Shown here piece by piece: positions 1 to 40,829 of a stretch of 40,829 bases of DNA. A model generated the notes under the pieces. The model was not told the DNA's origin. It did no database searches and was given only the letters and a program-made list of their open reading frames with translations. The translations under genes and the position numbers were made by a program. Source of the stretch: Escherichia phage P483. Location of the stretch: sequence record NC_028822.1. One strand, 5' to 3'. The first letter of the stretch is position 1. Every line of letters begins with the position of its first letter.

Positions 1-150
1 CGCGCAAGCGCTTACCATCGTTACGCAAATCATTAATGACCCTATCAGTGCTGCCCTCCAGCGCCGCAAGGTCTTCTTGGTATTGTCGTGAGATTTCGTT
101 GATAGCAGCTTGTTTATCCTCAGTCGCCTTAACTTTCTTAACGTACTCAT
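1..150 (-). CDS. 18.7: o-spanin Rz1 (T7 gp18.7-like), 5' part of the duplicated copy, embedded in Rz in another frame
   Basis: Same sequence as 40604..40753; see the complete copy at 40499..40753. Confidence 0.6.
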   Translation of the reverse strand, partial: MSTLRKLRRLRINKLLSTKSHDNTKKTLRRWRAALIGSLMICVTMVSACA

Positions 151-265
151 TGTGCACCTCCTGTTCCCATTTAGTGTTAGCTTTGTCATAGCCGTGGTTA
201 TACGCAAGGGTAACACCCAAGGCAAACGCAGCGATTATGGCGTAGCTCTTTAAATTCTTGAGCAT
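1..265 (-). CDS. 18.5: i-spanin Rz (T7 gp18.5-like), 5' part only; the gene continues off the window start and its 3' part is at 40425..40829
   Basis: ATG at 265 (minus) gives MLKNLKSYAIIAAFALGVTLAYNHGYDK..., an N-terminal membrane anchor; positions 1-226 are identical to 40604-40829; full length would be 147 aa. Confidence 0.8.
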   Translation of the reverse strand, partial: MLKNLKSYAIIAAFALGVTLAYNHGYDKANTKWEQEVHNEYVKKVKATEDKQAAINEISRQYQEDLAALEGSTDRVINDLRNDGKRLR

Positions 266-879: not shown

Positions 880-2904
880 TTATTGGTTTTGAACTAAGAT
901 TCGCGTAGGGACTGAACGGTTGTCTTGGTCGTTACGGAAAGTTCGCCCGTTGTTAGAGATTGTAAAGGTCAACCAGCCGCCCATAGACGAGATATAGTAA
1001 GCCCCATTATCCCCAATCTGAACAGGGTTCCAGCGACCGTTGGTTTGAATCCAGATGGTTCTCCATCGGACATCCTGTGAGAGACCTACGGAAACACCGC
1101 CACCAGCAGAGCCTTTCCAGACCTCAGCCCACCCAGCGTTCTTGCGGACATAGCGACCATCGCCTTGGGCTTGTGTCAATCGACCATTCACTAGGTTGTT
1201 CGTCTCGCTCTTGTTGTAGGCATGTTCGCCAAGGCGTTTGTTTACCCAAGCGTCGATATAAGACCCATACTTCTTGATGTATAAGTTACCATCAGGCGGG
1301 ATATACCACCCCTTATTACTAGATAGCAGTCCATCAATCGTCATGGTCAGTGTGTGGTCATGACCCCCGTCTCCCTTAAGTTGGATGATACCCTCATGAA
1401 AGTTGTTGCTACCTTTCGATACCATGCCAATAGAGAATGCCGCCGGATAACCATTAGAGCGTCTACCATATTGTTTAATCATAGGGTAATACACGTTGCC
1501 ATCCTGATTTCCGGGGAGGCTTTGCGAGTAAGGGGCATTGTTATTCAACTGGCTTGCAAACCCTCCTGACCCAAAAGTTGACTCAGTGTAGAATCTCTCG
1601 TCAGCCCTAATATACTTAGAGACTCGAAGATACCCATCCATAGAGACGTTCTGGTAGAATCGAGAGTCATGGTGAGCGTGGAATCCCCCATAGAAGTCAT
1701 GACGACCGTGCCCATTGGAGCGACCATCAGGCCACGTAGAAGGGTCTGTATTTCCAAACACATAGAAGTCCATGCGTTTTGTACCAGCCTGAATCCACTG
1801 TTCCCATACGGTATCCTTAGCGCCCTGTCCACGCCACTGATTCCATACTAAATCAACTGGTTGTGTGTCATCGCCTCTAGCATCATTGTGGAGCGTTAAA
1901 ACACTAGAGCCTACCTTGCCTTTAAAGTAAACATCACTATCCTCAACCCTGTCAATGGCCTCTGCAAGTGCATTCATGCTGCCTAACTTGTCGGCCTCAG
2001 TCTTAGCACGGTCAGCTTCACTCTTAGAGCGGTTAGCCTCAGTGTTAGCACGGTCTGCATGTCCTTTAGCGGTCTCAACATGTGCAGCAGCCTTGGCAAC
2101 CTCAGCAGCAGCTTTAGTCACTTCTCCGGCAGCACGATTGGCCTCATCACGGGCACGATTGGCCTCAGAGTTGGAACGGTCAGCTTGCTTCTTGGCCTCA
2201 GCGACACTTGCGGTCATACTATCAGCATAACCTTTAGCTCGGTTGGCCTCAGAGTTGGAACGGTCAGCTTGCTTCTTGGACTCAACTGCTTGTTGCGTTG
2301 AGACACCTGCCTGTTGCGTTGAGCGGTCAGCTTCACGTTTAGCACGGTCAGCTTCATCACGTGAGCGGTTAGCTTCCTTGTTAGAACGGTTAGCATGTTC
2401 ATCAGCTTTGGTCACAGCGTTCCAAGCAGACGACTCGCGCTCTTTTACTTGCTTCAGTGGGACAGCATCATAGTCACCAGTAGCGAACGCTAGGTTCACA
2501 ATCTTACGACCACGGGCATCCAAGTGACCATCATTGTTGACACCAATGGTATCCGCAGTTAGGTCTCGTGCCTCTTCAGCTACGTGCAGCGTCTGAATCT
2601 GTGAGATGTTAAGGTCATACGCACGAAGGATTGAGCCATCAGCAAAGTCAACCAGACGGTCGGTTGCAGAAGTGAATCTACGAATCTCAATCATCTGATA
2701 ACCATCGGCAGCAGTCCACGAACGGGAGGTTGTGATTTGGGTCTTAGTGGTAAAGCGATAGTCCTGATTAAGAACCAACTCTTTACGGTCTTTCCCGATG
2801 AGTGTCACTTGGACGAACTTACGTGCTAAATACTCAAAGGTAATCGTGAAGTTCACGGCACCGTTCAGCGGGTAAGTACGTACAGTGGAAATTTTGTTAG
2901 CCAT
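880..2904 (-). CDS. 17: Tail fiber protein (T7 gp17-like) with an expanded repetitive coiled-coil shaft
   Basis: Start moved to internal ATG at 2904 (MANKISTVRTYPLNG..., SD AGGAGG upstream); N-terminal 150 aa and C-terminal tip resemble T7 gp17 as recalled; 674 aa versus 553 in T7. Confidence 0.9.
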   Translation of the reverse strand: MANKISTVRTYPLNGAVNFTITFEYLARKFVQVTLIGKDRKELVLNQDYRFTTKTQITTSRSWTAADGYQMIEIRRFTSATDRLVDFADGSILRAYDLNISQIQTLHVAEEARDLTADTIGVNNDGHLDARGRKIVNLAFATGDYDAVPLKQVKERESSAWNAVTKADEHANRSNKEANRSRDEADRAKREADRSTQQAGVSTQQAVESKKQADRSNSEANRAKGYADSMTASVAEAKKQADRSNSEANRARDEANRAAGEVTKAAAEVAKAAAHVETAKGHADRANTEANRSKSEADRAKTEADKLGSMNALAEAIDRVEDSDVYFKGKVGSSVLTLHNDARGDDTQPVDLVWNQWRGQGAKDTVWEQWIQAGTKRMDFYVFGNTDPSTWPDGRSNGHGRHDFYGGFHAHHDSRFYQNVSMDGYLRVSKYIRADERFYTESTFGSGGFASQLNNNAPYSQSLPGNQDGNVYYPMIKQYGRRSNGYPAAFSIGMVSKGSNNFHEGIIQLKGDGGHDHTLTMTIDGLLSSNKGWYIPPDGNLYIKKYGSYIDAWVNKRLGEHAYNKSETNNLVNGRLTQAQGDGRYVRKNAGWAEVWKGSAGGGVSVGLSQDVRWRTIWIQTNGRWNPVQIGDNGAYYISSMGGWLTFTISNNGRTFRNDQDNRSVPTRILVQNQ
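2161..2279 (-). repeat. Two perfect 35-bp direct repeats inside the tail-fiber shaft coding region
   Basis: ggcctcagagttggaacggtcagcttgcttcttgg at 2161-2195 and 2245-2279; encodes KKQADRSNSEANRA twice. Confidence 0.85.
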
Positions 2905-2953
2905 CTGTAGCCTCCTTTCGGTTAGGTATAATAGGAGGGAAGCTGTGAGAGCC

Positions 2954-2976
2954 TTCCCCAATAGTGAGTCGTATTG
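2954..2976 (-). promoter_or_regulatory. Phage RNAP promoter phi17
   Basis: Minus strand reads CAATACGACTCACTATTGGGGAA. Confidence 0.85.
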
Positions 2977-2977
2977 T

Positions 2978-5900
2978 TTACTTCTTGTCAGCCTTAATGT
3001 GAACACCGTTGGCCTCATAGAACTTAATGAGCATCTGTTGAGAGATTGGGTCGTTAGGAATCATCTCTCGGTGAGCATTCATTAAGCCAGTCATCATCTC
3101 ACGCTCGGTCGGTTTGTTAGGAGCCGTAAGGACACCATAAGCATTTCGACCAGTAGCTAGAGCAGCACCAGCGAAGCCAAGAGCAGGAACCTGTTCACCA
3201 ATAGCGCCCATAATGGAATCACCCATGTCACGAGAAGTCACCGCCTTATTGCGTTCACGCTTGTCATCACCTTTCGGTAGAATCGTAGAGCGAACCATAA
3301 GACCTTGGTCGTAACCAGCAGCACCCATAGCGAAGTTAGCGATACTCAGAGGCGACCCAAGGTGTGAACTTCGGGAGGCCGCTGCGTAGGCAATCATCTT
3401 CGGGTCGAGAGCTTTCTTCAAGTAATCCTTCTGTTGCTCTTTAGGAAGACCAGCAGCTTTCAAGTGAGCCTGTGCCACGTAGTAGGAACCGGCAAGACCA
3501 CCAGAGATAGCATAGGTCAGAGCCATGTCCATAGCGCGATGGTTCTTAAAGGCTTCGTTGCCAGAGCGGATAAACTTAGAGTTCATCGACTTGATGACAA
3601 ACGATTTAAACTGAAGGACTAACTTAGCGGTAGCACCAAACGCATGGGAATCCTGTAAGGAAACCTTATGAGGTCTGAGCATCGTTTCATCAGCAACCTT
3701 ATCAGCTAAACGCCATAAGTCCATAGCACGAGGGTCATTAGCCAGAGCCTTCTTATCCTTGAAGGTGAACTTACCATCTTCACCACGAGTCACGTTCTCC
3801 CGGATGAGAGACTGAATGCCTTCCCACTGTTCCTTAGAGATACTCGCCGACTTCAGCATGTCACCTTTAATCCACTTGTTGGCACCCTTACCAGTGATAG
3901 CATGAGTTACCACATCGCCCATAACACCCTGACGGGCCATGTCCAGAAGGTAGTTTGACGTACCATTGAGGAACTTGGTTAGAGGTGAGCGAGCAGCCAG
4001 TTCTTGAGTTGTGTGCTTAATGGTCCCAACAACCTTTGCTGCAACATCAGGTGTATCAGTTGACTCACGGAGTCGCTGAATGATGTCTTGACGAGTCGGT
4101 CGGATTAACTGGTCGAACTCTTTACCGAACACCATAGAGTGGAGTTCTTTGAGTTCCTTACCGGAGACTGGCTTGTTGCGGAACGCTAAGTCACGCAGTG
4201 CCGGAATGCCATGAAGCATCGCACGGATATTACCCTTCGCCAACATACCGGAGATTTCAGTTAGGTTCTGCAAGCCCATGTATGCGTTCTTCGTAAAGAA
4301 GGACATATCGGACAGAGCACGAACCATAGTGTCACCTACAGTATCCTGATTACGTCGAGCACGACCAGTGAGAATCTTAACGGTATCCTTAAGTGCTTCC
4401 ACTTCACCTTTCATTGTGCCTTTACCTTCAGACTTCTTATCAAGAGCCATGATAGCGTCCTTGAGTTCAGCAGTAGTCTTGCCTGTACCTCCCATGATAG
4501 CAATATCACCATCAACACGGCGGTCATATGCTGGCATCACATGCTTCATATCGAAGTCACGGAGGTCATTCACAGAGAACTGTTGTCCATTCGGTAGAGT
4601 GACTGGCATGTCAGAATCAAACAGGTTACGGGCTTCAAGGAATGAGTTGTTCTCAATCCCAACGAGACCCTCAATGTTATCGTCAATGACACTTGAAGAG
4701 TTGAACTCATCGGTCTTCGCAATACCATAAGCCTTGTCCATAGCGTACTTCTCAGCCATCTGACTAAGCATAGCCTCTTCGTCTACCTTTGGTTCCACCT
4801 TCTCGTCTGTGCCAAACTTCTGGCGCTCTGAAGGTTTAGCCGGAGCAGCTTGTGCACCTTTGGCAGCAGAGGCGGCTTCTTCAGCTTCGGCGGTGGCTCT
4901 GGTGATTCTGTCTTGGACCTTAGTAGCCTGTCCTTTCATGTATTCGAGACGCTCTGTGTTAACACGGACGTGAGACTTCTGGGTCTCAATCATCTGCTTC
5001 CGGCTCTCAATCTTAACAGGAATGGTTTTGCTATTAGGTTTAGCAGCTAGTTTTTCTTCCAACTCCTTCAGCTTAGCCTCATGCGAAGCCAGTCTGTCCT
5101 TGGAGTTCTGGAGTTTCCTTTCACGGTCCGCAACTCGCTTCTCAGCGTTGGTCAGGACGTCTTTTAGTTCTGCTACCTTATCACTTGCCTGTGTAGCTGC
5201 ATCGTCCAGTTTCATCTGGTAACTGGCTGTGTCGACAGACTCTTGGCTTCTGAGGAAGTTCTCAGTGTCAGCCGCAAGTTTGGCATCAGCTTCAGCTTTG
5301 GAGAAAACGTCACTGTTAACCTGTTTAAGGTATTCATCAACACGGGCCTTAACTTCAGGACGTGAATGATAGGATGTCATCCAGCTTGCAGCAATCGCTT
5401 CCTGTAAACCATCAGAACCCCCAAGAGCCTGTGAGTACAACTGCTTGGCTTCCCGTGAGTACACATGAGGAACGTAAGTCCCTTTGTGACGACTGTTAGG
5501 GAAGATAGAGTTGGCCTTGTTACCGAACATCGACGGGTTCTCCATCATCTCACGCTTGAGGTCAAAGTGTTCCTTCATGATGTCCATCACCTTACGTTCT
5601 GCCTTTGTCAAGTTGGCCTGAAGTTCAGGTCTCTCGATAGCCACAGCAGCACGACGATAGATTTCTTGACGGGCACCTTGAGCACCACTCTTGAACATAC
5701 CCACAGACCACTCAGGGTCAGCCATCGCTTCCTTCATTGCACCATAGAGGTCATTGTAGGTTCGCTGGTTGTTACTGTGTAGGCGCTCTTTGATGTCTGA
5801 GGCGGTAGCCCCAAACTTACCATGTGAGCCAGACTCCATACCTGTAGGTGAGCGCACTAAGTCCTTAGCTAGTCCACGGATTTCAGCGTGTTCAGAACGT

Positions 5901-10789: not shown

Positions 10790-10817
10790 AGAGTTTCTCT
10801 CCTATAGTATAAAACCC

Positions 10818-10840
10818 CTTCCCAATAGTGAGTCGTATTG
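10818..10840 (-). promoter_or_regulatory. Phage RNAP promoter phi13
   Basis: Minus strand reads CAATACGACTCACTATTGGGAAG. Confidence 0.85.
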
Positions 10841-10868
10841 TTCACTTATTGAGTCGGGGTGTTTCTAT

Positions 10869-13256
10869 TTAGATACCAGAAGTACGACGTAGGTAGTTAC
10901 CTTCCCAGCCACATCCAATCACGTTTAGTGGTGTAGTGTGGTCAGAGATAATACGGACCTCATTCAACTGTGCGTTGCCAGCAACCGGGAAGCGGAACTG
11001 ACCTGTACCAACGTTAAGTCCACCAGAGCGTAACGCATTGGAACCCAAGCGAGCACCCGCCATGTCATAGCTGAACAGTCGAGAGGTGTTCTCCACTTCC
11101 ACAACGAATGCGCCAGAGTCCTCATAGTTAACCCATGCGCGTCGAAGCTGCAAGCGACCAATGTCCTCGGTAGCCGTAGACCCATCGTCAGCGGTCTTCT
11201 TGATGAGGAACTTAGAGAACACGTAGCGGAAGTCAATTGCCATCCCAATGTAGATGGTCTCACCTTCTCGGTTCCCATTCATAGACAGGACAGGAACACC
11301 ATCAGGCCACCCACCACGCGGCTGGTCGAACCACGAGACTAAACCATCAGAGGCCACGATGTAGAACTTACCCAACCAATACTTCATCCCGTAGATGTCC
11401 ACAGGCTTGATAGTGGTCGTGTAGGTATCATCATTATAGGAACCTGTAGGAATCACGTACTTCATCTTGTTGTCAATGTACAGACGATAAGGCTCATCAG
11501 GGAAGTCAATGCTGTTCTTCGTAAAGTGAGCGCGGCACATCCAAGTGTGGGACTGGTTGCGCAGCACAAGGTACATGGTGGACCCGATAGAGTCACAAGC
11601 CAGAACCGTTACGTTACTTCCAAGTTCCCAATGTGACCACGACTGTTGAGCAATCTCTTCGTTGAGGTACAGGAATTTGTACAGGAAGATTTTACTCGGA
11701 GCGTTCGCAGAGAGCACGGAGATGAAGTTCTCAGTACCGGAGCCACGAATGGAGAACACACCGTTCGGAATGTAACTTGGAACGTGAGCACTCATATCCT
11801 CAGCAGACTTCACGGAGCTAACATCCTGTACCGCATAGTAACGGTTCAGTGACGTGTAGGAAGCACGAGGTGACGCAAAATAAACACCACGTCCAACACC
11901 AAAAGGTCTCGCTCGGTCTGACACATCGAACTCGGTCGTGAGGTTCAACTCTACGGACTTCGGAGAGAGGATACCTTGAGCAGACAACACGAACTGTGCT
12001 TGGTCTGACCATAGGAGTAACTCTTCGGAGAACGGTACAGCGTACTTCAGGATAGAGATACGGTTGTGGGACACTGCTACGTCAATCGGGTCATCGTCGG
12101 ATAGGTTAGCCACGGACGCAGGGAACAATGAGAAATACTTGGATGTACGGGACATCACAATGTTCTCACCAGCAAGGAACCCTAAGCGGTTACGGAAGAA
12201 GAACACATCGTTAATCGTCTGGTCAACAATAGACGGAGTAGGGTTAGTATCCATGTCGCCACAGGTACGCTGTGACCACGGAAGGGCTTGCATCTGGAAT
12301 GAACCATCAGACTGACGCACAAGAGCATGAGGCATCGTGTCACCATTGAGTCCCTTCTGTACTCCCCAACCAGCCACCTCTTTCCACACCTTCTTCACGT
12401 TGTCGTACTGAACGTAGAACTGGTCGGAAGTCTTAGAGGTGTCACCTACAATCTTCACTGTGTATCCATTAGGAGCCTCAAGGGGCAACTTACTGAATGA
12501 CTGGCTGGTGTGCATCACTGCGTTCATCAACTGGTTGGCGTAGCCATCTTCAGTGGACAGTGAGTTAATCTGGCTGTTACCCGGAGCAATCACATGGATG
12601 AACCCCGGCCCTTCGTCGAACTTCCAGTCCTTAAAGGAACCGTGAGCACGAGCAAGGCCAGCTAGTTTCTTAACGAGCCACTGTGCGTCTGTCTCCTGTA
12701 CAGCCTGTTCAGCACCATCACCGACACCGTTGTGAATCTTGTATGAGATACGTACACCGTTGATAGTGAATGCCAGTGTACGCCCATACTGACCACCACG
12801 GACGTTAATCAAACAGTCTCCATTCTCCTTTAGGCTATACAGAGGGGCAGTGTCAGCGCGTACCACCATGTTACGGTTTACGATAAACGTATAGTCAGCC
12901 ACAGTGACCATCCTTAAGTCATCTCGTGGATTCCCTACCTTCACGTAGGACAAGTCACCCTTCACAGTATACTCTTTACCATTGAGGTCGAACACTCGAA
13001 CACCCTGTCCGGTAAACACTACGTAATACTGTTCGACACTATCTCGGTTGATGAGGTGAACGAGAGGTTTGGCACCAAGGGCATTCTGGTCTCCAATGGT
13101 CTTAGTGAAGACAAAAGGTGGACGCTTCTGAAGACCCTCAGTCTCAGACGACCAAGCGTTAATCTGTTCGGCACCCTGTTCGGGGAACCTTAAGATGTCT
13201 GGCTGTTGACTGATACCGCCTTTCAGGTTCTTGACGGATTGTGAAATAAGAGCCAT
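10869..13256 (-). CDS. 12: Tail tubular protein B (T7 gp12-like)
   Basis: Start moved to internal ATG at 13256 (MALISQSVKNLKGGISQQPDILR...), matching the T7 gp12 N-terminus as recalled; 795 aa. Confidence 0.9.
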   Translation of the reverse strand: MALISQSVKNLKGGISQQPDILRFPEQGAEQINAWSSETEGLQKRPPFVFTKTIGDQNALGAKPLVHLINRDSVEQYYVVFTGQGVRVFDLNGKEYTVKGDLSYVKVGNPRDDLRMVTVADYTFIVNRNMVVRADTAPLYSLKENGDCLINVRGGQYGRTLAFTINGVRISYKIHNGVGDGAEQAVQETDAQWLVKKLAGLARAHGSFKDWKFDEGPGFIHVIAPGNSQINSLSTEDGYANQLMNAVMHTSQSFSKLPLEAPNGYTVKIVGDTSKTSDQFYVQYDNVKKVWKEVAGWGVQKGLNGDTMPHALVRQSDGSFQMQALPWSQRTCGDMDTNPTPSIVDQTINDVFFFRNRLGFLAGENIVMSRTSKYFSLFPASVANLSDDDPIDVAVSHNRISILKYAVPFSEELLLWSDQAQFVLSAQGILSPKSVELNLTTEFDVSDRARPFGVGRGVYFASPRASYTSLNRYYAVQDVSSVKSAEDMSAHVPSYIPNGVFSIRGSGTENFISVLSANAPSKIFLYKFLYLNEEIAQQSWSHWELGSNVTVLACDSIGSTMYLVLRNQSHTWMCRAHFTKNSIDFPDEPYRLYIDNKMKYVIPTGSYNDDTYTTTIKPVDIYGMKYWLGKFYIVASDGLVSWFDQPRGGWPDGVPVLSMNGNREGETIYIGMAIDFRYVFSKFLIKKTADDGSTATEDIGRLQLRRAWVNYEDSGAFVVEVENTSRLFSYDMAGARLGSNALRSGGLNVGTGQFRFPVAGNAQLNEVRIISDHTTPLNVIGCGWEGNYLRRTSGI

Positions 13257-18271: not shown

Positions 18272-18547
18272 TTATTTCTTCTTAAAGACACTGGTACGGA
18301 TACCAGACTTGGACTTCTTCTTGGCAGCAGCGGAGTCTGCCTTCTTGGATTTCTCAACGGAGTCATCCAGTTTCACCTTCAGGGACTTCTTACCACCCGT
18401 TGGTACCTCAGAAGAGGTTCCGCTATCGTTGTCCTCTTCGCCACCAAAGAGAATACCTTTCGGTTCCTCAGTCAGTGGAGCAGGGTCGATAGCTCGGATG
18501 GATTCAGTCTTTACTTTAGGTGTCTTAATCTTTGGTGAAAAGCACAT
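18272..18547 (-). CDS. 6.7: Small virion protein (T7 gp6.7-like)
   Basis: N-terminus MCFSPKIKTPK matches T7 gp6.7 as recalled; SD GGAGGT. Confidence 0.7.
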   Translation of the reverse strand: MCFSPKIKTPKVKTESIRAIDPAPLTEEPKGILFGGEEDNDSGTSSEVPTGGKKSLKVKLDDSVEKSKKADSAAAKKKSKSGIRTSVFKKK

Positions 18548-18562
18548 AAGACCTCCATAACA

Positions 18563-18808
18563 CTAGGACTCAGCCTGTTCCTTACGGATTGCCTCCATGT
18601 CATCCAGAGTTTGAGACGCATAGTTGAGACCCGCGAGGAACCCAGCGATGTAGCTTTCAGACCATCCAGCCTGTTTCAATCGGTTGATTAGTCCTGACTG
18701 AATAGCATATCCAGCATTGTATTGAACCTGTAGGTACTCCATAGTTGCACGAGGCACATTAGGAATATCTTGTGGGTTCTCCATATACTTCTTGATAGGG
18801 GTTAACAT
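18563..18808 (-). CDS. Hypothetical protein (T7 gene 6.5 position)
   Basis: Start at internal ATG 18808 with SD AAGGAGA; 81 aa; follows promoter phi6.5. Confidence 0.7.
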   Translation of the reverse strand: MLTPIKKYMENPQDIPNVPRATMEYLQVQYNAGYAIQSGLINRLKQAGWSESYIAGFLAGLNYASQTLDDMEAIRKEQAES

Positions 18809-18859
18809 AATTAATGTTCTCCTTAAAGTTAAACTTAAAGTAGGTATCATATAGGCACC

Positions 18860-18882
18860 CCTCTCAATAGTGAGTCGTATTG
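18860..18882 (-). promoter_or_regulatory. Phage RNAP promoter phi6.5
   Basis: Minus strand reads CAATACGACTCACTATTGAGAGG. Confidence 0.8.
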
Positions 18883-18910
18883 ATTTCACTGTCGAGAAGA
18901 ATGCCTAGAG

Positions 18911-18997
18911 TTACACACTCTTAGCTATAAATGCAGCCCACACCATAGCGAAGGCTACGATTGCGAACATTACGAACGCAACTGTTCCGGCGACCAT
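18911..18997 (-). CDS. Small hydrophobic peptide (T7 gene 6.3 position)
   Basis: 28 codons, MVAGTVAFVMFAIVAFAMVWAAFIAKSV, SD AGGAGA 7 nt upstream; not in the ORF track (under 60 aa). Confidence 0.5.
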   Translation of the reverse strand: MVAGTVAFVMFAIVAFAMVWAAFIAKSV

Positions 18998-23189: not shown

Positions 23190-23212
23190 TCTCCCATTAG
23201 TGAGTTGAATAG
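23190..23212 (-). promoter_or_regulatory. Phage RNAP promoter phi4.7 (divergent class II type)
   Basis: Minus strand reads CTATTCAACTCACTAATGGGAGA; A instead of G at -11. Confidence 0.65.
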
Positions 23213-23227
23213 ATTTCATACAAAAGT

Positions 23228-23268
23228 TAATCATGAAGGCCATCCGTTAAGATGACCTTTAGTTTAAC
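23228..23268 (-). other. Putative RNase III processing hairpin (R4.7 position)
   Basis: atcatGAAGGCCAtccgttaagaTGACCTTtAGTTtaac motif shared with five other sites. Confidence 0.45.
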
Positions 23269-23272
23269 TCTT

Positions 23273-23575
23273 TTAGATTCCAGATTTCGCAGCCAGAATC
23301 ATGCCCTCTTCGCCAGTCACTTTGGACATCAGGAGTTCACGAGTCTTGTCTTCACCTACAGCCACAGTAGCAGCTACAGCAACGGAAGCCAGCAGACGAC
23401 CTGCCTGTGTATCGTCAAGAGTCACACGCTGTGTGTGCGCCTTGGTGGACTTATGGTCCTTCCAACGGTAGACCAAAGTGACCTTGCCATTACGGACGTT
23501 AATATGTACTCGACGAGCATACTGGTCGATGGTGTCGGACAGACGGATCGTGTTGCCGGGGAATTTAATAGCCAT
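23273..23575 (-). CDS. Hypothetical protein (T7 gene 4.5 position)
   Basis: 100 aa, SD AAGGAGTGA. Confidence 0.65.
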   Translation of the reverse strand: MAIKFPGNTIRLSDTIDQYARRVHINVRNGKVTLVYRWKDHKSTKAHTQRVTLDDTQAGRLLASVAVAATVAVGEDKTRELLMSKVTGEEGMILAAKSGI

Positions 23576-25682: not shown

Positions 25683-25732
25683 AGTGGTTACTCCTTATAC
25701 AATTTTAGCGAACAAAGGGAGAAACCTTTCGG

Positions 25733-25755
25733 TCCTCCCATAGTGAGTTCTATTA
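25733..25755 (-). promoter_or_regulatory. Phage RNAP promoter upstream of gene 4 (T7 phi3.8 position)
   Basis: Minus strand reads TAATAGAACTCACTATGGGAGGA. Confidence 0.7.
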
Positions 25756-28564: not shown

Positions 28565-28598
28565 AAACGCAAAAAGGCCAGCCCACGAAGGACTGACC
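28565..28598 (-). terminator. TE-like intrinsic terminator for host RNAP at the end of the early operon
   Basis: Minus-strand RNA GGUCAGUCC-UUCGU-GGGCUGGCC (9-bp stem, two G-U) followed by UUUUUGCGUUU. Confidence 0.7.
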
Positions 28599-30105: not shown

Positions 30106-30156
30106 GATGGAACTCCTATATGTGTGTGTGTTATGGTTAATGTTTAAACAAAAGTT

Positions 30157-30194
30157 AATCACAAAGGCCAACCTTTCGGATGACCTTGAGTCTA
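30157..30194 (-). other. Putative RNase III processing hairpin (R1.3 position)
   Basis: aatcacAAAGGCCAacctttcggaTGACCTTGAGTcta motif. Confidence 0.45.
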
Positions 30195-30196
30195 CC

Positions 30197-30219
30197 TCTC
30201 GCAATAGTGAGTCGTATTA
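30197..30219 (-). promoter_or_regulatory. Phage RNAP promoter phi1.3
   Basis: Minus strand reads TAATACGACTCACTATTGCGAGA. Confidence 0.8.
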
Positions 30220-30638: not shown

Positions 30639-30673
30639 AATGTTATTTCCTCTTGGTAGTATCGTTGACAGTT

Positions 30674-30712
30674 AATAATGAAGGCCACCATGTAGATGAC
30701 CTTGAGTTTAAC
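30674..30712 (-). other. Putative RNase III processing hairpin (R1.1 position)
   Basis: aataatGAAGGCCAccatgtagaTGACCTTGAGTTtaac motif. Confidence 0.45.
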
Positions 30713-30720
30713 TTTCAGTG

Positions 30721-30743
30721 TTTCCCATTAGTGAGTCGTATTG
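30721..30743 (-). promoter_or_regulatory. Phage RNAP promoter phi1.1
   Basis: Minus strand reads CAATACGACTCACTAATGGGAAA. Confidence 0.8.
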
Positions 30744-34027: not shown

Positions 34028-34057
34028 TGTTGCCTCACGTTGTTGAGAAAGTTTATC

Positions 34058-34093
34058 TATAAAGGCCAGCAGTCAGTGCCGACCTTGAAGATA
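34058..34093 (-). other. Putative RNase III processing hairpin (R1 position)
   Basis: ctatAAAGGCCAgcagtcagtgccGACCTTGAAGata motif between kinase and RNAP genes. Confidence 0.45.
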
Positions 34094-34100
34094 CACCTTA

Positions 34101-35198
34101 TCAGCCCATGAACAATACGTCCATCATTTTGTCAATCATCAGTGGTGCGCCAGCTTGGATAGCCAGACCGTCAGCCACTTGCCACTTGAAGCCGTTCACT
34201 TGGTCAATCTTGCGGACCGTTGCGTTACCATTACGCAGCCAGAAGTCATGCCATGCAGACCCCATGAGCATCTCAGCACGGCGTTCGTTGCGCTCAATCA
34301 CACCGCGTTCCCTACGGATTGCCATAAAGTGTAAGCGGTCACGTTCAGCCACCTTGGCACGTAACTTACGGTTACGCTTGCGGCGTTTCATGTTGGCTTT
34401 CTTGTTCATCCAGTAAGTGCCATTAGGGTCACGCTTGGCCTTGCGGTTGCGGCAACGTTCAATCATACGTTCTTGCGCTACAGCCTCGACCTCGGCCAGC
34501 AGTGCTTCAGGGTCCAGAGGAAAACCGTCCTCACGTTCACGGTCATGTGAGAAACTCACCGGGTCAGTGATGTACGGAACATCGTTATCGTCGAACATAA
34601 TGTTCCCACTGTGCATGTCGAAGGATGCAATGCCTTTGAAGAACTCACGAATCATTTTGCAGGTTTCGATGAACTCGTAGTCACCCGGTGCAAAGTCGCT
34701 TGCGTCATGGCAATCCGACTCCACAAAGTAACGTGCGAGGTCAGCGTATACCTCATGGTCATAATTATTGCGGTCGCAACTGTTCAAGTGGTCCAATACA
34801 ACCGTATAGCAACCTGCATGACGTGCTACGTGATAGACGTTAGGGATACCCGCTCGGCCTTGGTGCATCCTACAGAATGCAGTGTATGCAGCGCCTGAAT
34901 CCTCTTTCTTAAAGCCAACCTTGATGACTCGACCCGGTAACAATTCGTGCGAGTAGGCCGCGCTGAAGTGACCATTGCCTAACATGCGGAATCCTGCATC
35001 ACGCATCAGTGCGCCCAAGGTGTTCCACCAGTCCTGATACTCCAAGCCGTTCGAGCCATCGGTGTCGTTTCCGTCACATGTTTCACCGTTCACGATGTCA
35101 GCAGCCAGTTCGACCAAAAGAGGCTGGCGCTTGTCCAAGTCGCTAATCGGGAGAGACTTGATGATTGCCAGACGTGCCTGAATGTCGGTGTAATTCAT
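34101..35198 (-). CDS. 0.7: Serine/threonine protein kinase, host shut-off (T7 gp0.7-like)
   Basis: 365 aa; GNGHFSAAYSH, VIKVGFKKEDSGAAYTAFCRM, FDMHSGNIMF, VPYITDPVSFS match T7 gp0.7 as recalled. Confidence 0.9.
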   Translation of the reverse strand: MNYTDIQARLAIIKSLPISDLDKRQPLLVELAADIVNGETCDGNDTDGSNGLEYQDWWNTLGALMRDAGFRMLGNGHFSAAYSHELLPGRVIKVGFKKEDSGAAYTAFCRMHQGRAGIPNVYHVARHAGCYTVVLDHLNSCDRNNYDHEVYADLARYFVESDCHDASDFAPGDYEFIETCKMIREFFKGIASFDMHSGNIMFDDNDVPYITDPVSFSHDREREDGFPLDPEALLAEVEAVAQERMIERCRNRKAKRDPNGTYWMNKKANMKRRKRNRKLRAKVAERDRLHFMAIRRERGVIERNERRAEMLMGSAWHDFWLRNGNATVRKIDQVNGFKWQVADGLAIQAGAPLMIDKMMDVLFMG

Positions 35199-35667: not shown

Positions 35668-35696
35668 GGTGTTAGTCCTATTGCATGTTAAATGAT

Positions 35697-35738
35697 AATC
35701 ATGAAAGGCCACTCACAAGGAGCGACCTTGAGTTTATC
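35697..35738 (-). other. Putative RNase III processing hairpin (R0.5 position)
   Basis: aatcatGAAAGGCCActcacaaggagcGACCTTGAGTTtatc motif. Confidence 0.45.
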
Positions 35739-35740
35739 AC

Positions 35741-36199
35741 TTACTGTACTTGCCAGCGGCGACCGAACTCATCAATCGTGAAGCAACCTTGAAGCGGTGC
35801 GCCTTTAGGCACTTCTTGGAAGCTACCCGGTAAACGTTCAGCTTTATAGCCGTCAATGCCTTTAGCATACACTAAGCCAGCCGTGTGAGTCTGTGACTTA
35901 TAGACCAGTACGCAGTCCTGTTCAAACTCATTACATGCCAGACGTGCGACCGCTATTGCTTGAGCTTTGTTGGCACAGCGTACACGAACAGTCAGTTCCT
36001 CAGTCGGTGCACTTGCGATAGCCTCCCGATAACAACCAGTCAAATCTGTAGACTCAACGCTACCGTATTCAAGCGGTGCATTACGCAGTGAGTTAACCAT
36101 GTGACGATGACGACTCATATTTACTTCGTCGCAGAGGTTAGAGCGGAACGCTGATACCAGTACATAGAATACGTTTGCAGGTTCGTTAGTGTAAATCAT
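35741..36199 (-). CDS. 0.3: S-adenosyl-L-methionine hydrolase/lyase (T3 gp0.3 SAMase-like anti-restriction protein)
   Basis: 152 aa; MIYTNEPANVFYVLVSAFRSNLCDEVNMSRHRHMV...GCFTIDEFGRRWQVQ is near-identical to T3 SAMase as recalled. Confidence 0.9.
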   Translation of the reverse strand: MIYTNEPANVFYVLVSAFRSNLCDEVNMSRHRHMVNSLRNAPLEYGSVESTDLTGCYREAIASAPTEELTVRVRCANKAQAIAVARLACNEFEQDCVLVYKSQTHTAGLVYAKGIDGYKAERLPGSFQEVPKGAPLQGCFTIDEFGRRWQVQ

Positions 36200-36465
36200 G
36201 ATAGTGCCTCATTATGTGTGTGTTAGTGATTATCATTAAAGAGCACACGTTGTTACTTAATGTATGCCCTTGAGTTAATCGCTATCGGCGTTATCACTGT
36301 TTAAACGCTTGTGCGTTCACGTCATCCCCGTAGTTCTTGACTACCTGTCTCGCAGTAAGGGAATTACACGACCAAATTGTTAAAGAGCTTTAAGTGCAGG
36401 TTTGTTAGCACCGAGTCACTTTCAGTGTGTGACCTCACAAGAACGTTATGTAGTGCATGTGGTAC

Positions 36466-36734: not shown

Positions 36735-36840
36735 CCACTTTCATATGTCTGGTTGATGACTACTTGAGACTCTTCAGCTTTACTAGATAACTCGCGGTAT
36801 TGTCTAGTAGTTGGTAGCGTTGTGTCTCTCAACGGTTGCT

Positions 36841-36869
36841 ATAGTCTCATAAGCCATTATCAATGTCAA
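36841..36869 (-). promoter_or_regulatory. Sigma70-type early promoter (A1-like)
   Basis: Minus strand -35 TTGACA (36864-36869), 17-bp spacer, -10 GACTAT (36841-36846). Confidence 0.6.
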
Positions 36870-39864: not shown

Positions 39865-40422
39865 TTACTCGGCAGGTTTCTCTAAGGCAGCAATGCGCTT
39901 CTCAAGAGCCTTGATAGTGTCGGTCTTAGATACAGCCCCGTCGATGTTACTAGGTTGGAACATAACGGAAACGCTCTTCCCTTCGCTATCCACGAACTGT
40001 GTACCAAATTCACTATCAGACGCAGAAAGCGTTGCACTAACTAAGGAAGCCATACCACCTTCAGGTTCAGGGTCAGCACCAGTCCACTCTTTGTATACGT
40101 CGATTCGAACCATACCGAGTCGCTCAGTGCTTTGCTCATTCAGGAACACCGTCATGAACCCGCTACCCGGTTTAGACTCGACGGAGCCACCCCAAGTGGA
40201 CATAAGGGTCTCGAACGTAGCGTGTTGCTCAGTGGTGCCATCACTCAGTTGGATAACGTATTCAACCTTAGAGTAGCCCTCAACCTTAACCATCTCCGAA
40301 GCTGGGATGTCGATACGCCCAACACGAAGACCAATATTGTTGCGGTCGTACACATCACGACTGTCTGGTGAGCGACCATTGATGGTCCATAGTGTGCGGG
40401 TTCTTGAGTTTGTAGTAGCCAT
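39865..40422 (-). CDS. Hypothetical late protein inserted between Rz/Rz1 and terminase large subunit (no T7/T3 counterpart recognised)
   Basis: 185 aa ORF, ATG 40422 preceded by SD GAAGGAGAAG at optimal spacing; starts 3 nt after the Rz stop and ends 16 nt before the gene 19 start; no TM segment, no Cys, C-terminal amphipathic helix. Confidence 0.75.
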   Translation of the reverse strand: MATTNSRTRTLWTINGRSPDSRDVYDRNNIGLRVGRIDIPASEMVKVEGYSKVEYVIQLSDGTTEQHATFETLMSTWGGSVESKPGSGFMTVFLNEQSTERLGMVRIDVYKEWTGADPEPEGGMASLVSATLSASDSEFGTQFVDSEGKSVSVMFQPSNIDGAVSKTDTIKALEKRIAALEKPAE

Positions 40423-40424
40423 AA

Positions 40425-40829
40425 TTACTTCTCCTTCTTAGCTTGCATTTCAGTTATTGTATTTTGGAGCGCCTTAATCCACGCATCCCCTCTTTGAGTT
40501 ACTCCGATAAGACGCTTACTAAACTCTTCGTCAAGTTCGGCTCGACCATCAACGAGGCATCCACCATTAGCTTGGAGTTCTCGTGTGGTGGCTGATAGTT
40601 TGACGCGCAAGCGCTTACCATCGTTACGCAAATCATTAATGACCCTATCAGTGCTGCCCTCCAGCGCCGCAAGGTCTTCTTGGTATTGTCGTGAGATTTC
40701 GTTGATAGCAGCTTGTTTATCCTCAGTCGCCTTAACTTTCTTAACGTACTCATTGTGCACCTCCTGTTCCCATTTAGTGTTAGCTTTGTCATAGCCGTGG
40801 TTATACGCAAGGGTAACACCCAAGGCAAA
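40425..40829 (-). CDS. 18.5: i-spanin Rz (T7 gp18.5-like), 3' part; the 5' end lies beyond the window end (equivalent to 1..265)
   Basis: Continuous with the copy at the window start; resembles T7 gp18.5 as recalled. Confidence 0.8.
   Translation of the reverse strand, partial: FALGVTLAYNHGYDKANTKWEQEVHNEYVKKVKATEDKQAAINEISRQYQEDLAALEGSTDRVINDLRNDGKRLRVKLSATTRELQANGGCLVDGRAELDEEFSKRLIGVTQRGDAWIKALQNTITEMQAKKEK
40499..40753 (-). CDS. 18.7: o-spanin Rz1 (T7 gp18.7-like), embedded in Rz in the +1 frame
   Basis: ATG 40753 with SD GGAGGTG; MSTLRKLRRLRINK...LIGSLMICVTMVSACAS (lipoprotein signal and Cys) ...SLMVEPNLT resembles T7 gp18.7 as recalled. Confidence 0.8.
   Translation of the reverse strand: MSTLRKLRRLRINKLLSTKSHDNTKKTLRRWRAALIGSLMICVTMVSACASNYQPPHENSKLMVDASLMVEPNLTKSLVSVLSE
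40604..40829. repeat. 226-bp exact duplication of window positions 1-226 (circular-permutation overlap, not a biological repeat)
   Basis: Direct comparison of window start and end. Confidence 0.95.

Follow-up and report, generated by a model that had tools for sequence, protein, structure and literature searches.

Probable RNase III processing hairpins of the T7 family in Escherichia phage P483

The conserved intergenic hairpins of Escherichia phage P483 are, with high confidence on comparative grounds, RNase III processing signals of a T7-family phage (Studiervirinae, Berlinvirus-like). Hairpins of this kind, at which host RNase III divides the long T7-family transcripts into stable mRNAs, are already a textbook feature of the T7 group, and the finding is in that sense an ordinary one. 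The window analyzed is the whole stretch of 40,829 nt, a T7-like podophage genome of the Berlinvirus/BA14 type. The six hairpins proposed in the initial annotation (324–357, 23228–23268, 30157–30194, 30674–30712, 34058–34093 and 35697–35738) are all present at these coordinates and are indeed the counterparts of T7 R18.5, R4.7, R1.3, R1.1, R1 and R0.5, as established by pattern matches in T7, the annotation of T3, a colinear and covarying 21-sequence alignment and the same flanking genes. Each of the proposed spans corresponds to just the upper stem; the whole element is ~55 nt long and also includes an internal loop and a lower stem that covaries. The family, given as six, has eight members in P483, since R0.3 (36220–36285) and R6.5 (18838–18926) had been overlooked. 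Together with two hairpins of another architecture, the phage appears, from sequence comparison, to hold the full T7 set of ten sites.

Every long ORF in the window, like each of the 13 matches to the promoter core (CTCACTAWTGSGARA), is on the minus strand, so that relative to the conventional T7 map the sequence is shown as its reverse complement. Megablast relatives at 90–97% identity include Yersinia phage WW1, Shigella phage A7, E. coli phages P151, P694 and BA14 and related Salmonella phages, with E. coli, Shigella, Yersinia and Salmonella as hosts; BA14 is classified in Studiervirinae, Berlinvirus. The genes around the R sites were identified with Pfam and PHROGs as those for SAM lyase gp0.3, gp0.7 kinase, RNA polymerase, gp1.05, gp1.2, gp4.5, gp18 and terminase. 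P483 and T3 are alike in gene order (SAM lyase gene 0.3, gene 1.05) but differ in their promoters, the P483 consensus ACGACTCACTAWTGGGAGA (13 sites, 2954–37996, minus strand) being T7-like and not T3-like. The first and last 226 nt of the window (1–226 and 40604–40829) are 100% identical and lie inside gene 18.5, so that the assembly is circularly permuted, its ends overlap and its unique length is ~40,603 nt; this identity is not the true terminal repeat of the phage. Between gene 18.5 and the terminase gene there is a 185-aa ORF (39865–40422, minus strand), at a place where T7 has no gene; it gave no match in a Pfam search and its PHROG matches are only to families of unknown function (phrog_20446). 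Within a 712-aa ORF (880–3018), presumably the tail fibre gene, there is a 48-nt direct repeat with 94% identity (2153–2200 and 2237–2284).

The hairpins had been described by a shared literal pattern, GGCCA, a spacer of 10–14 nt and GACCTTGAGT. The pattern is exact at three of the six sites (30166, 30683 and 35707; 0.01 expected by chance) and the other three deviate by one to three bases: the sequence at 23254 is GACCTTTAGTT, that at 34058–34093 ends in GACCTTGAAGAT, and at 324–357 the half-boxes are exchanged (GACCA...GGCCTTGAGTT). The observed spacers of 10–12 nt fall within the proposed range. The halves pair with G-U wobbles, as had been claimed, only in the minus-strand RNA; the motif had been written on the antisense (plus) strand, where the wobbles become C-A mismatches. 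In the sense RNA the motif reads (U)AAACUC-AAGGUC, a variable stem and loop, and GGCCUU-YAUGAUUA. The core AAGGYC-N6–20-GRYCTT matches exactly the six loci in P483 and no others, with 11 strand-matches against 0.48 expected, a number reached by none of 100 shuffles. An unfiltered search of the window with a covariance model derived from the 21-sequence alignment (the P483 sites, seven from T7 and seven from T3) found seven matches, all on the minus strand and with 49–67 bits; the next best match has 13.7 bits. The search of P483 against Rfam 15 returned no match at gathering thresholds or at E≤1, and the T7 R sites appear to be without any Rfam model.

The ~55-nt element has a lower stem of ~9 bp rich in A and U, an asymmetric internal loop (5' ACUC, 3' YAUGA) and an upper stem of ~10 bp, in total about two helical turns, with the box AAGGUC/GGCCUU forming the base of the upper stem. 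This irregular hairpin on the transcribed strand is found in the minimum-energy folds of all six sites as well as of R0.3 and R6.5; the lower stem of R1.3 is irregular in its fold. Folding of each of the six gave −16.5 to −21.6 kcal/mol for the minus-strand RNA versus −7.5 to −14.4 kcal/mol for the plus strand, the minus strand being better by 5–10 kcal/mol at the P483 sites. Across the 21-site alignment of P483, T7 and T3, 93.3% of cells are paired versus 75.3% in shuffles and 32–48% in slid registers, and both sides have changed in 14 of the 20 pairs. The 114 distinct matches from relatives have 95.7% of cells paired, with covariation at each of the ten lower-stem pairs.

The fold also bears on whether the hairpins could be intrinsic terminators or attenuators for host or phage RNA polymerase, as intergenic stem-loops that contain G+C and are followed by a U-rich stretch (CCUUUAUGAUU) might suggest. 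Such a function is highly improbable, given that the conserved internal loop and the lower stem would have no role in a terminator and that the T7 homologs sit within polycistronic transcripts that are read through (PMC4858673). An intrinsic terminator was rejected on another count as well: a scan for a stem plus T-run reports none of the R sites, and the early terminator TE was found separately at 28598–28576.

All ten sites are on the minus strand, and the cuts given for eight of them are predicted by alignment with the T7 cut positions. The focal R4.7-type site (23218–23273) lies between the stop of gene 4.5 (23273) and the promoter before gene 4.7. It consists of the lower stem AAGAGUUAA/UUAACUUUU, the internal loop and the upper stem AAGGUCAUCU/GGAUGGCCUU, scores 65.4 bits with the covariance model (E 2.5e-13) and folds at −19.1 kcal/mol (z −5.28); cleavage is predicted at RNA nucleotides 23233|23232 (CCUUCAU^GAUU). 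The phi4.7 promoter core (23190–23204, minus strand), an exact match to the promoter core, is directly downstream; transcripts that start there are without R4.7. The R1.1-type site (30663–30717; 59.8 bits; predicted cut 30678|30677) is downstream of phi1.1 and upstream of gene 1.1. The phi1.1 promoter core (30721–30735, minus strand; exact match) is directly upstream of R1.1, and the whole site is contained in its transcripts; outside the core the site is 74% identical to R1.1 of T3. The R1.3-type site (30146–30201; 59.7 bits; predicted cut 30161|30160) is upstream of the ligase gene, and its first base is the second nucleotide of the phi1.3 transcript; the first bases transcribed from the phi1.3 promoter core (30197–30211, minus strand; exact match) make up the 5' strand of the lower stem of R1.3.

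In the early region, the R0.3-type site (36220–36285; predicted cut 36235|36234) precedes gene 0.3; its box has diverged to AAGGGC/GCUCUU and its loop is larger. It aligns with R0.3 of T7 and T3, scores 48.9 bits (E 3e-9) and folds at −16.7 kcal/mol (z −4.3). The R0.5-type site (35686–35743; 66.6 bits; predicted cut 35701|35700) is between gene 0.3 (SAM lyase) and gene 0.6, folds at −21.6 kcal/mol versus −11.5 kcal/mol on the plus strand and, outside the core, is 83% identical to T7 R0.5. The R1-type site (34044–34100; 55.7 bits; predicted cut 34059|34058) separates the stop of the gene 0.7 kinase from the start of RNA polymerase. The kinase gene itself (34101–35198, minus strand) matches the serine/threonine kinase family phrog_2828 (E 2.6e-180) and phrog_15752, annotated 'positively regulates RNaseIII'. 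At the other end of the map, the R18.5-type site (311–366; 54.0 bits; predicted cut 326|325) is between gene 18 (stop codon 364–366) and gene 18.5. Its wobble has moved by one pair (AAGGCC/GGUCUU), and the same variant occurs in T7 at 36830–36853.

Three further sites are recognized in other ways. The R6.5-type site (18838–18926) keeps the AACUC...UAUGAU frame and, like its T7 and T3 counterparts, has an upper stem and loop enlarged to take in the phi6.5 promoter; it was recognized by comparison with T7 18490–18610 and with R6.5 as annotated in T3, where it also overlaps phi6.5. It folds at −33.8 kcal/mol (z −4.65), is weakly matched by the covariance model (11.9 bits) because of the insertion, and would be cut at about 18849|18848. 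The R3.8-like and R13-like hairpins are assigned by homology alone. The former (25700–25752; −15.5 kcal/mol, z −2.64) has another architecture, lacks the AAGGUC box and resembles T7 R3.8 (…GGGAG.ACC…GGUUUC.CCCUUU^GUUCGC; T7 11177–11203 plus flank). The latter (10806–10862; −20.4 kcal/mol, z −5.39) encloses phi13, with the promoter 15-mer at 10818–10832, and has another architecture like R13 of T7 and T3, the T3 R13 annotation also overlapping phi13. A promoter-like sequence, AACTCACTATGGGAGGA (25715–25745, minus strand), overlaps the R3.8-like hairpin; it is one base short of the P483 promoter consensus and is unmatched by the promoter pattern.

The correspondence with T7 and T3 extends to details. 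The same core pattern matches T7 at 1441, 5861, 6421, 13867 and 36830, which are R0.5, R1.1, R1.3, R4.7 and R18.5. The T7 cleavage coordinates reported by Dunn and Studier (1983), namely 890, 1468, 3138, 5887, 6448, 13892, 18563 and 36856, all land at one place in the motif, ...UUUAU^GAU. T7 R0.3, R0.5, R1, R1.1, R1.3, R4.7, R6.5 and R18.5 share with the P483 sites a common three-part architecture, the core AACUC-AAGGUC...GGCCUU-UAUGAUU, the gene junctions and the strand; the P483 sites occupy the intergenic positions syntenic with the T7 group before genes 0.3, 0.5/0.6, 1, 1.1, 1.3, 4.7, 6.5 and 18.5. The relation of the sites to the phi1.1, phi1.3, phi4.7 and phi6.5 promoters is also the same in both phages, whereas the apical and lower stems differ by compensatory changes. 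The T3 record AJ318471 has ten annotated 'RNase III recognition site' stem-loops at homologous junctions, seven of them colinear with P483 sites. RNase III sites are not listed in the T7 records NC_001604 and V01146 or in the BA14 record. Some differences are local: the R1 box is canonical in P483 (AAGG/CCUU) but CAGG/CCUG in T7 and T3, the lower stem of P483 R4.7 is of the R1.1/R1.3 type, unlike that of T7 R4.7, and R1.1 comes after gene 1.05 in P483 and T3 but directly after gene 1 in T7.

Related loci, 49 in number, were fetched through the RNA polymerase gene and searched with the covariance model and nhmmer. The model found 195 matches in them, every one (195/195) on the sense strand, as are all seven in P483. 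The positions found by nhmmer in 42 relatives are regular: R1 is ~47 nt before the RNA polymerase start, R1.1 just after the RNA polymerase gene or gene 1.05, R1.3 ~0.5 kb beyond R1.1 and R4.7 ~7–8.5 kb downstream. R4.7 is present in nearly every relative with 64–99% RNA polymerase identity whose locus extends that far. Its orthologs in 36 distinct related loci have kept the core while the flanks have diverged, and between subgroups the flanks are unalignable and the lower stem has changed by compensation. Neither the model nor nhmmer found an R site in the seven loci with 35–39% RNA polymerase identity. At the R1 position of seven loci with 72–74% polymerase identity (L023, L024, L026, L028, L029, L030 and L044; within the ~110 nt upstream of the RNA polymerase gene), the shape of lower stem, loop and upper stem is kept, but the box is of the GGUG/CACC type in place of AAGGUC/GGCCUU. 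Strand specificity, the retained G-U wobbles and the compensatory changes show that selection acts at the level of RNA.

Beyond these loci, a motif search of IMG/VR found at least 120 stretches, nearly all from contigs of 38–45 kb. In 596 Gb of bacterial genomes, 99 motif stretches were found, close to a chance expectation of ~40, the latter a rough figure that assumes uniform base composition. The bacterial scan contains no host-chromosome family, save two short multi-copy contigs that look like phage, and the motif is phage-specific. Contigs of ~44–45 kb (L061, 754–807; L125, 6874–6927 and 2933–3008; L084, L092, L123, L106 and L122) have one or two near-identical copies at 50–69 bits. At least some of them are K1-5-like: L061, the one that was checked, matches Escherichia phage AAPEc6 with full identity and K1-5 (Vectrevirus, SP6 group) with 97%, its copy being near the DNA polymerase gene. 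The element family is therefore not confined to Studiervirinae. The K1-5/K1E-like phages (Vectrevirus) have a near-identical core, ACUCAAGGUCACU...AGUGGCCUUUAUGAAUAAC, which scores 55–69 bits with the same model, but they belong to another subfamily and differ from P483 in having only one or two copies per ~44-kb genome, at another gene junction. General RNase III substrates of E. coli (pre-rRNA stems, rncO, the lambda N leader and sib), for which a model of proximal, middle and distal boxes is used, are like the P483 sites in having a helix of about two turns, a proximal box of the preferred pairs G-C, A-U and A-U and no G-C pair beside the scissile bond. In the cellular substrates, however, the boxes are degenerate and both strands are usually cut (PMC3867540), in contrast to the near-invariant box of the phage R-site family and its conserved asymmetric loop that limits cuts to one strand.

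The T7 literature provides the basis for a processing mechanism. R1.1 of T7 is the standard model substrate. Five sites are cut by RNase III in the ~7-kb early transcript of T7, and later transcripts are processed as well (PMC4858673), the total in T7 being ten sites (PMC6938266), and the T7 homologs of the P483 hairpins are cut both in vivo and in vitro (PMC6121014, PMC4858673). In R1.1 the internal loop is asymmetric (4/5 nt) and cleavage occurs at a single primary position (PMC6121014); the distal box UA/UG of R1.1 is not conserved in the P483 sites. Internal loops confine cutting to one strand, and the remaining 3' hairpin guards against 3'–5' exonucleases (PMC1540722, PMC3867540). By analogy, we infer for P483 both cleavage and its exact position, as well as effects on mRNA stability and translation. 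Long minus-strand transcripts would come from host RNA polymerase at first and from the phage polymerase later on, and at each gene junction the transcript would fold into the ~55-nt irregular hairpin. Host RNase III would bind the helix of about two turns, its dsRNA-binding domain reading the A-U, A-U and G-C pairs of the proximal box, and the internal loop would distort the helix such that only the 3' strand is cut, after ...CCUUYAU. The upstream mRNA would thus keep a 3' hairpin that may protect it from 3' exonucleases, and the downstream mRNA would receive a new 5' end near its ribosome-binding site. The T7 gp0.7 kinase phosphorylates RNase III and raises its kcat about five-fold (PMC4858673), and gp0.7 of P483 probably also increases RNase III turnover. 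T7 grows in hosts without RNase III (PMC6938266), and processing is therefore not essential, its role in fitness being modest or conditional.

Conservation of the sites exceeds what pairing needs, an excess that the initial annotation had read as suggesting sequence-specific recognition. No variation is seen among the 114 distinct sequences at A17-U125 or G18-C124, and the adjoining A-U pair is 93% conserved, whereas the lower-stem and apical pairs occur as three to five pair types. When the alignment is mapped onto the R1.1 numbering, by deduction from U12:G27 and position 9:30 (PMC1540722), the invariant pairs are positions 1–3 of the proximal box on that mapping. Pertzev and Nicholson (2006) showed that the proximal box is a positive recognition determinant with preferences for G-C, A-U/U-A and A-U at positions 1–3, and that a G-C at position 2 is a minor-groove antideterminant, recognized through a conserved glutamine in the dsRNA-binding domain (PMC1540722). 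The invariant pairs match these preferences, and the suggestion of sequence recognition is therefore right for the box. It is only partly right overall and does not hold for the whole motif: T7 R3.8 and R13 are without it, and the box is absent from R3.8, R13 and the R1 of some relatives. A conserved element, the CUU/GAA box, was reportedly found to be dispensable in vitro (Chelladurai et al., 1991).

Near-invariance also extends to U14 and U130 in the loop and to the ACUC/AUGA beside them, which exceeds the published RNase III determinants; the matches were chosen by a model of the same motif, and this apparent invariance is therefore somewhat inflated, in part an ascertainment effect of the search. 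A U-G wobble is conserved in 95 of the 114 sequences even though it is not optimal for cleavage, since G-U or G-C substitution raised the reactivity of a minimal substrate (PMC1540722). The near-invariant loop bases, like the growth of T7 without the enzyme, would fit hairpins that work independently of RNase III, as mRNA-stabilizing or translation-modulating elements or as binding sites of a phage protein, the loop bases being read by that factor. The cleavage of the T7 homologs by RNase III and the known part of the loop in enforcing single-strand cleavage make this improbable. To our knowledge there is no candidate for such a factor. The remaining conservation of the loop bases and the U-G wobble, which the published determinants leave unexplained, may reflect the enforcement of single-strand cleavage or recombination among the copies.

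Recombination among the sites deserves separate consideration. The ~55-nt elements might act, mainly or additionally, as blocks of DNA homology at which cassettes of early genes are gained, lost, permuted or converted, the copies being kept alike by recombination; we regard this as possible but doubtful. In relatives, an R0.5-type site comes after the SAM lyase cassette and another after the ocr-like/0.4-like cassette, and either cassette may come first; P483 has one cassette. A P694-like locus (L025, 5157–6265) has SAM lyase, a first site (A), the ocr-like and 0.4-like genes, a second site (B) and gene 0.6, whereas P483 has only SAM lyase, R0.5 and gene 0.6; a Shigella A7-like locus (L005, 987–2001) has the cassettes in the order opposite to L025. 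R0.5 of P483 (35686–35743) combines the 5' flank of site A with the 3' flank of site B, and the cassette pattern looks as if recombination at the sites had added, removed or reordered cassettes. R4.7 of P483 is, outside the core, closest to its own R1.3 (74%) and not to R4.7 of T7 or T3, and R4.7 of T3 is closest to sites of the R0.5 type. R4.7 (23218–23273) and R1.3 (30146–30201) of P483 have the 3' flank GAUUAACUUUUGU in common. Each of the two is nearer to the other than to its T7 or T3 ortholog, and their likeness hints at conversion or replacement among paralogous sites. Several BLAST breakpoints between P483 and its relatives are in or next to R0.3, R0.5, R1.1 and R1.3, but most other gene boundaries have breakpoints too, as do promoters and the terminator TE; enrichment at the R sites is therefore not established, and recombination is a lead rather than a result.

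As a replacement for RNA processing, homology-driven maintenance is opposed by the strict strand specificity, the conserved wobbles and the compensatory changes, all signs of RNA-level selection, and by the single conserved position of R4.7 in all relatives with 64–99% RNA polymerase identity. Recombination is thus best seen as a secondary consequence and not as an alternative. It is conceivable, although we hold it only tentatively, that the R sites do double duty as RNase III processing signals and as recombination joints at which anti-defence cassettes (SAM lyase, Ocr) are swapped, duplicated, permuted and deleted. If so, gene conversion (concerted evolution) would help to explain conservation beyond the needs of RNase III. 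Studier and Dunn are said to have described T7 deletions between short repeats, and the idea may be partly anticipated; a literature search on R sites in Kvp1/BA14-type phages and on T7 deletions between R sites found nothing useful.

The sites matter mainly for annotation. P483 can now be labelled with ten RNase III sites and with predicted cuts, while BA14, the closest annotated relative checked, has none in its record. The covariance model separates true sites cleanly in P483 (at least 49 versus at most 14 bits), for a textbook element that appears to be without an Rfam model. The comparative data also sharpen an old question, the pairs that do not vary being exactly the proximal-box pairs that the enzyme reads.
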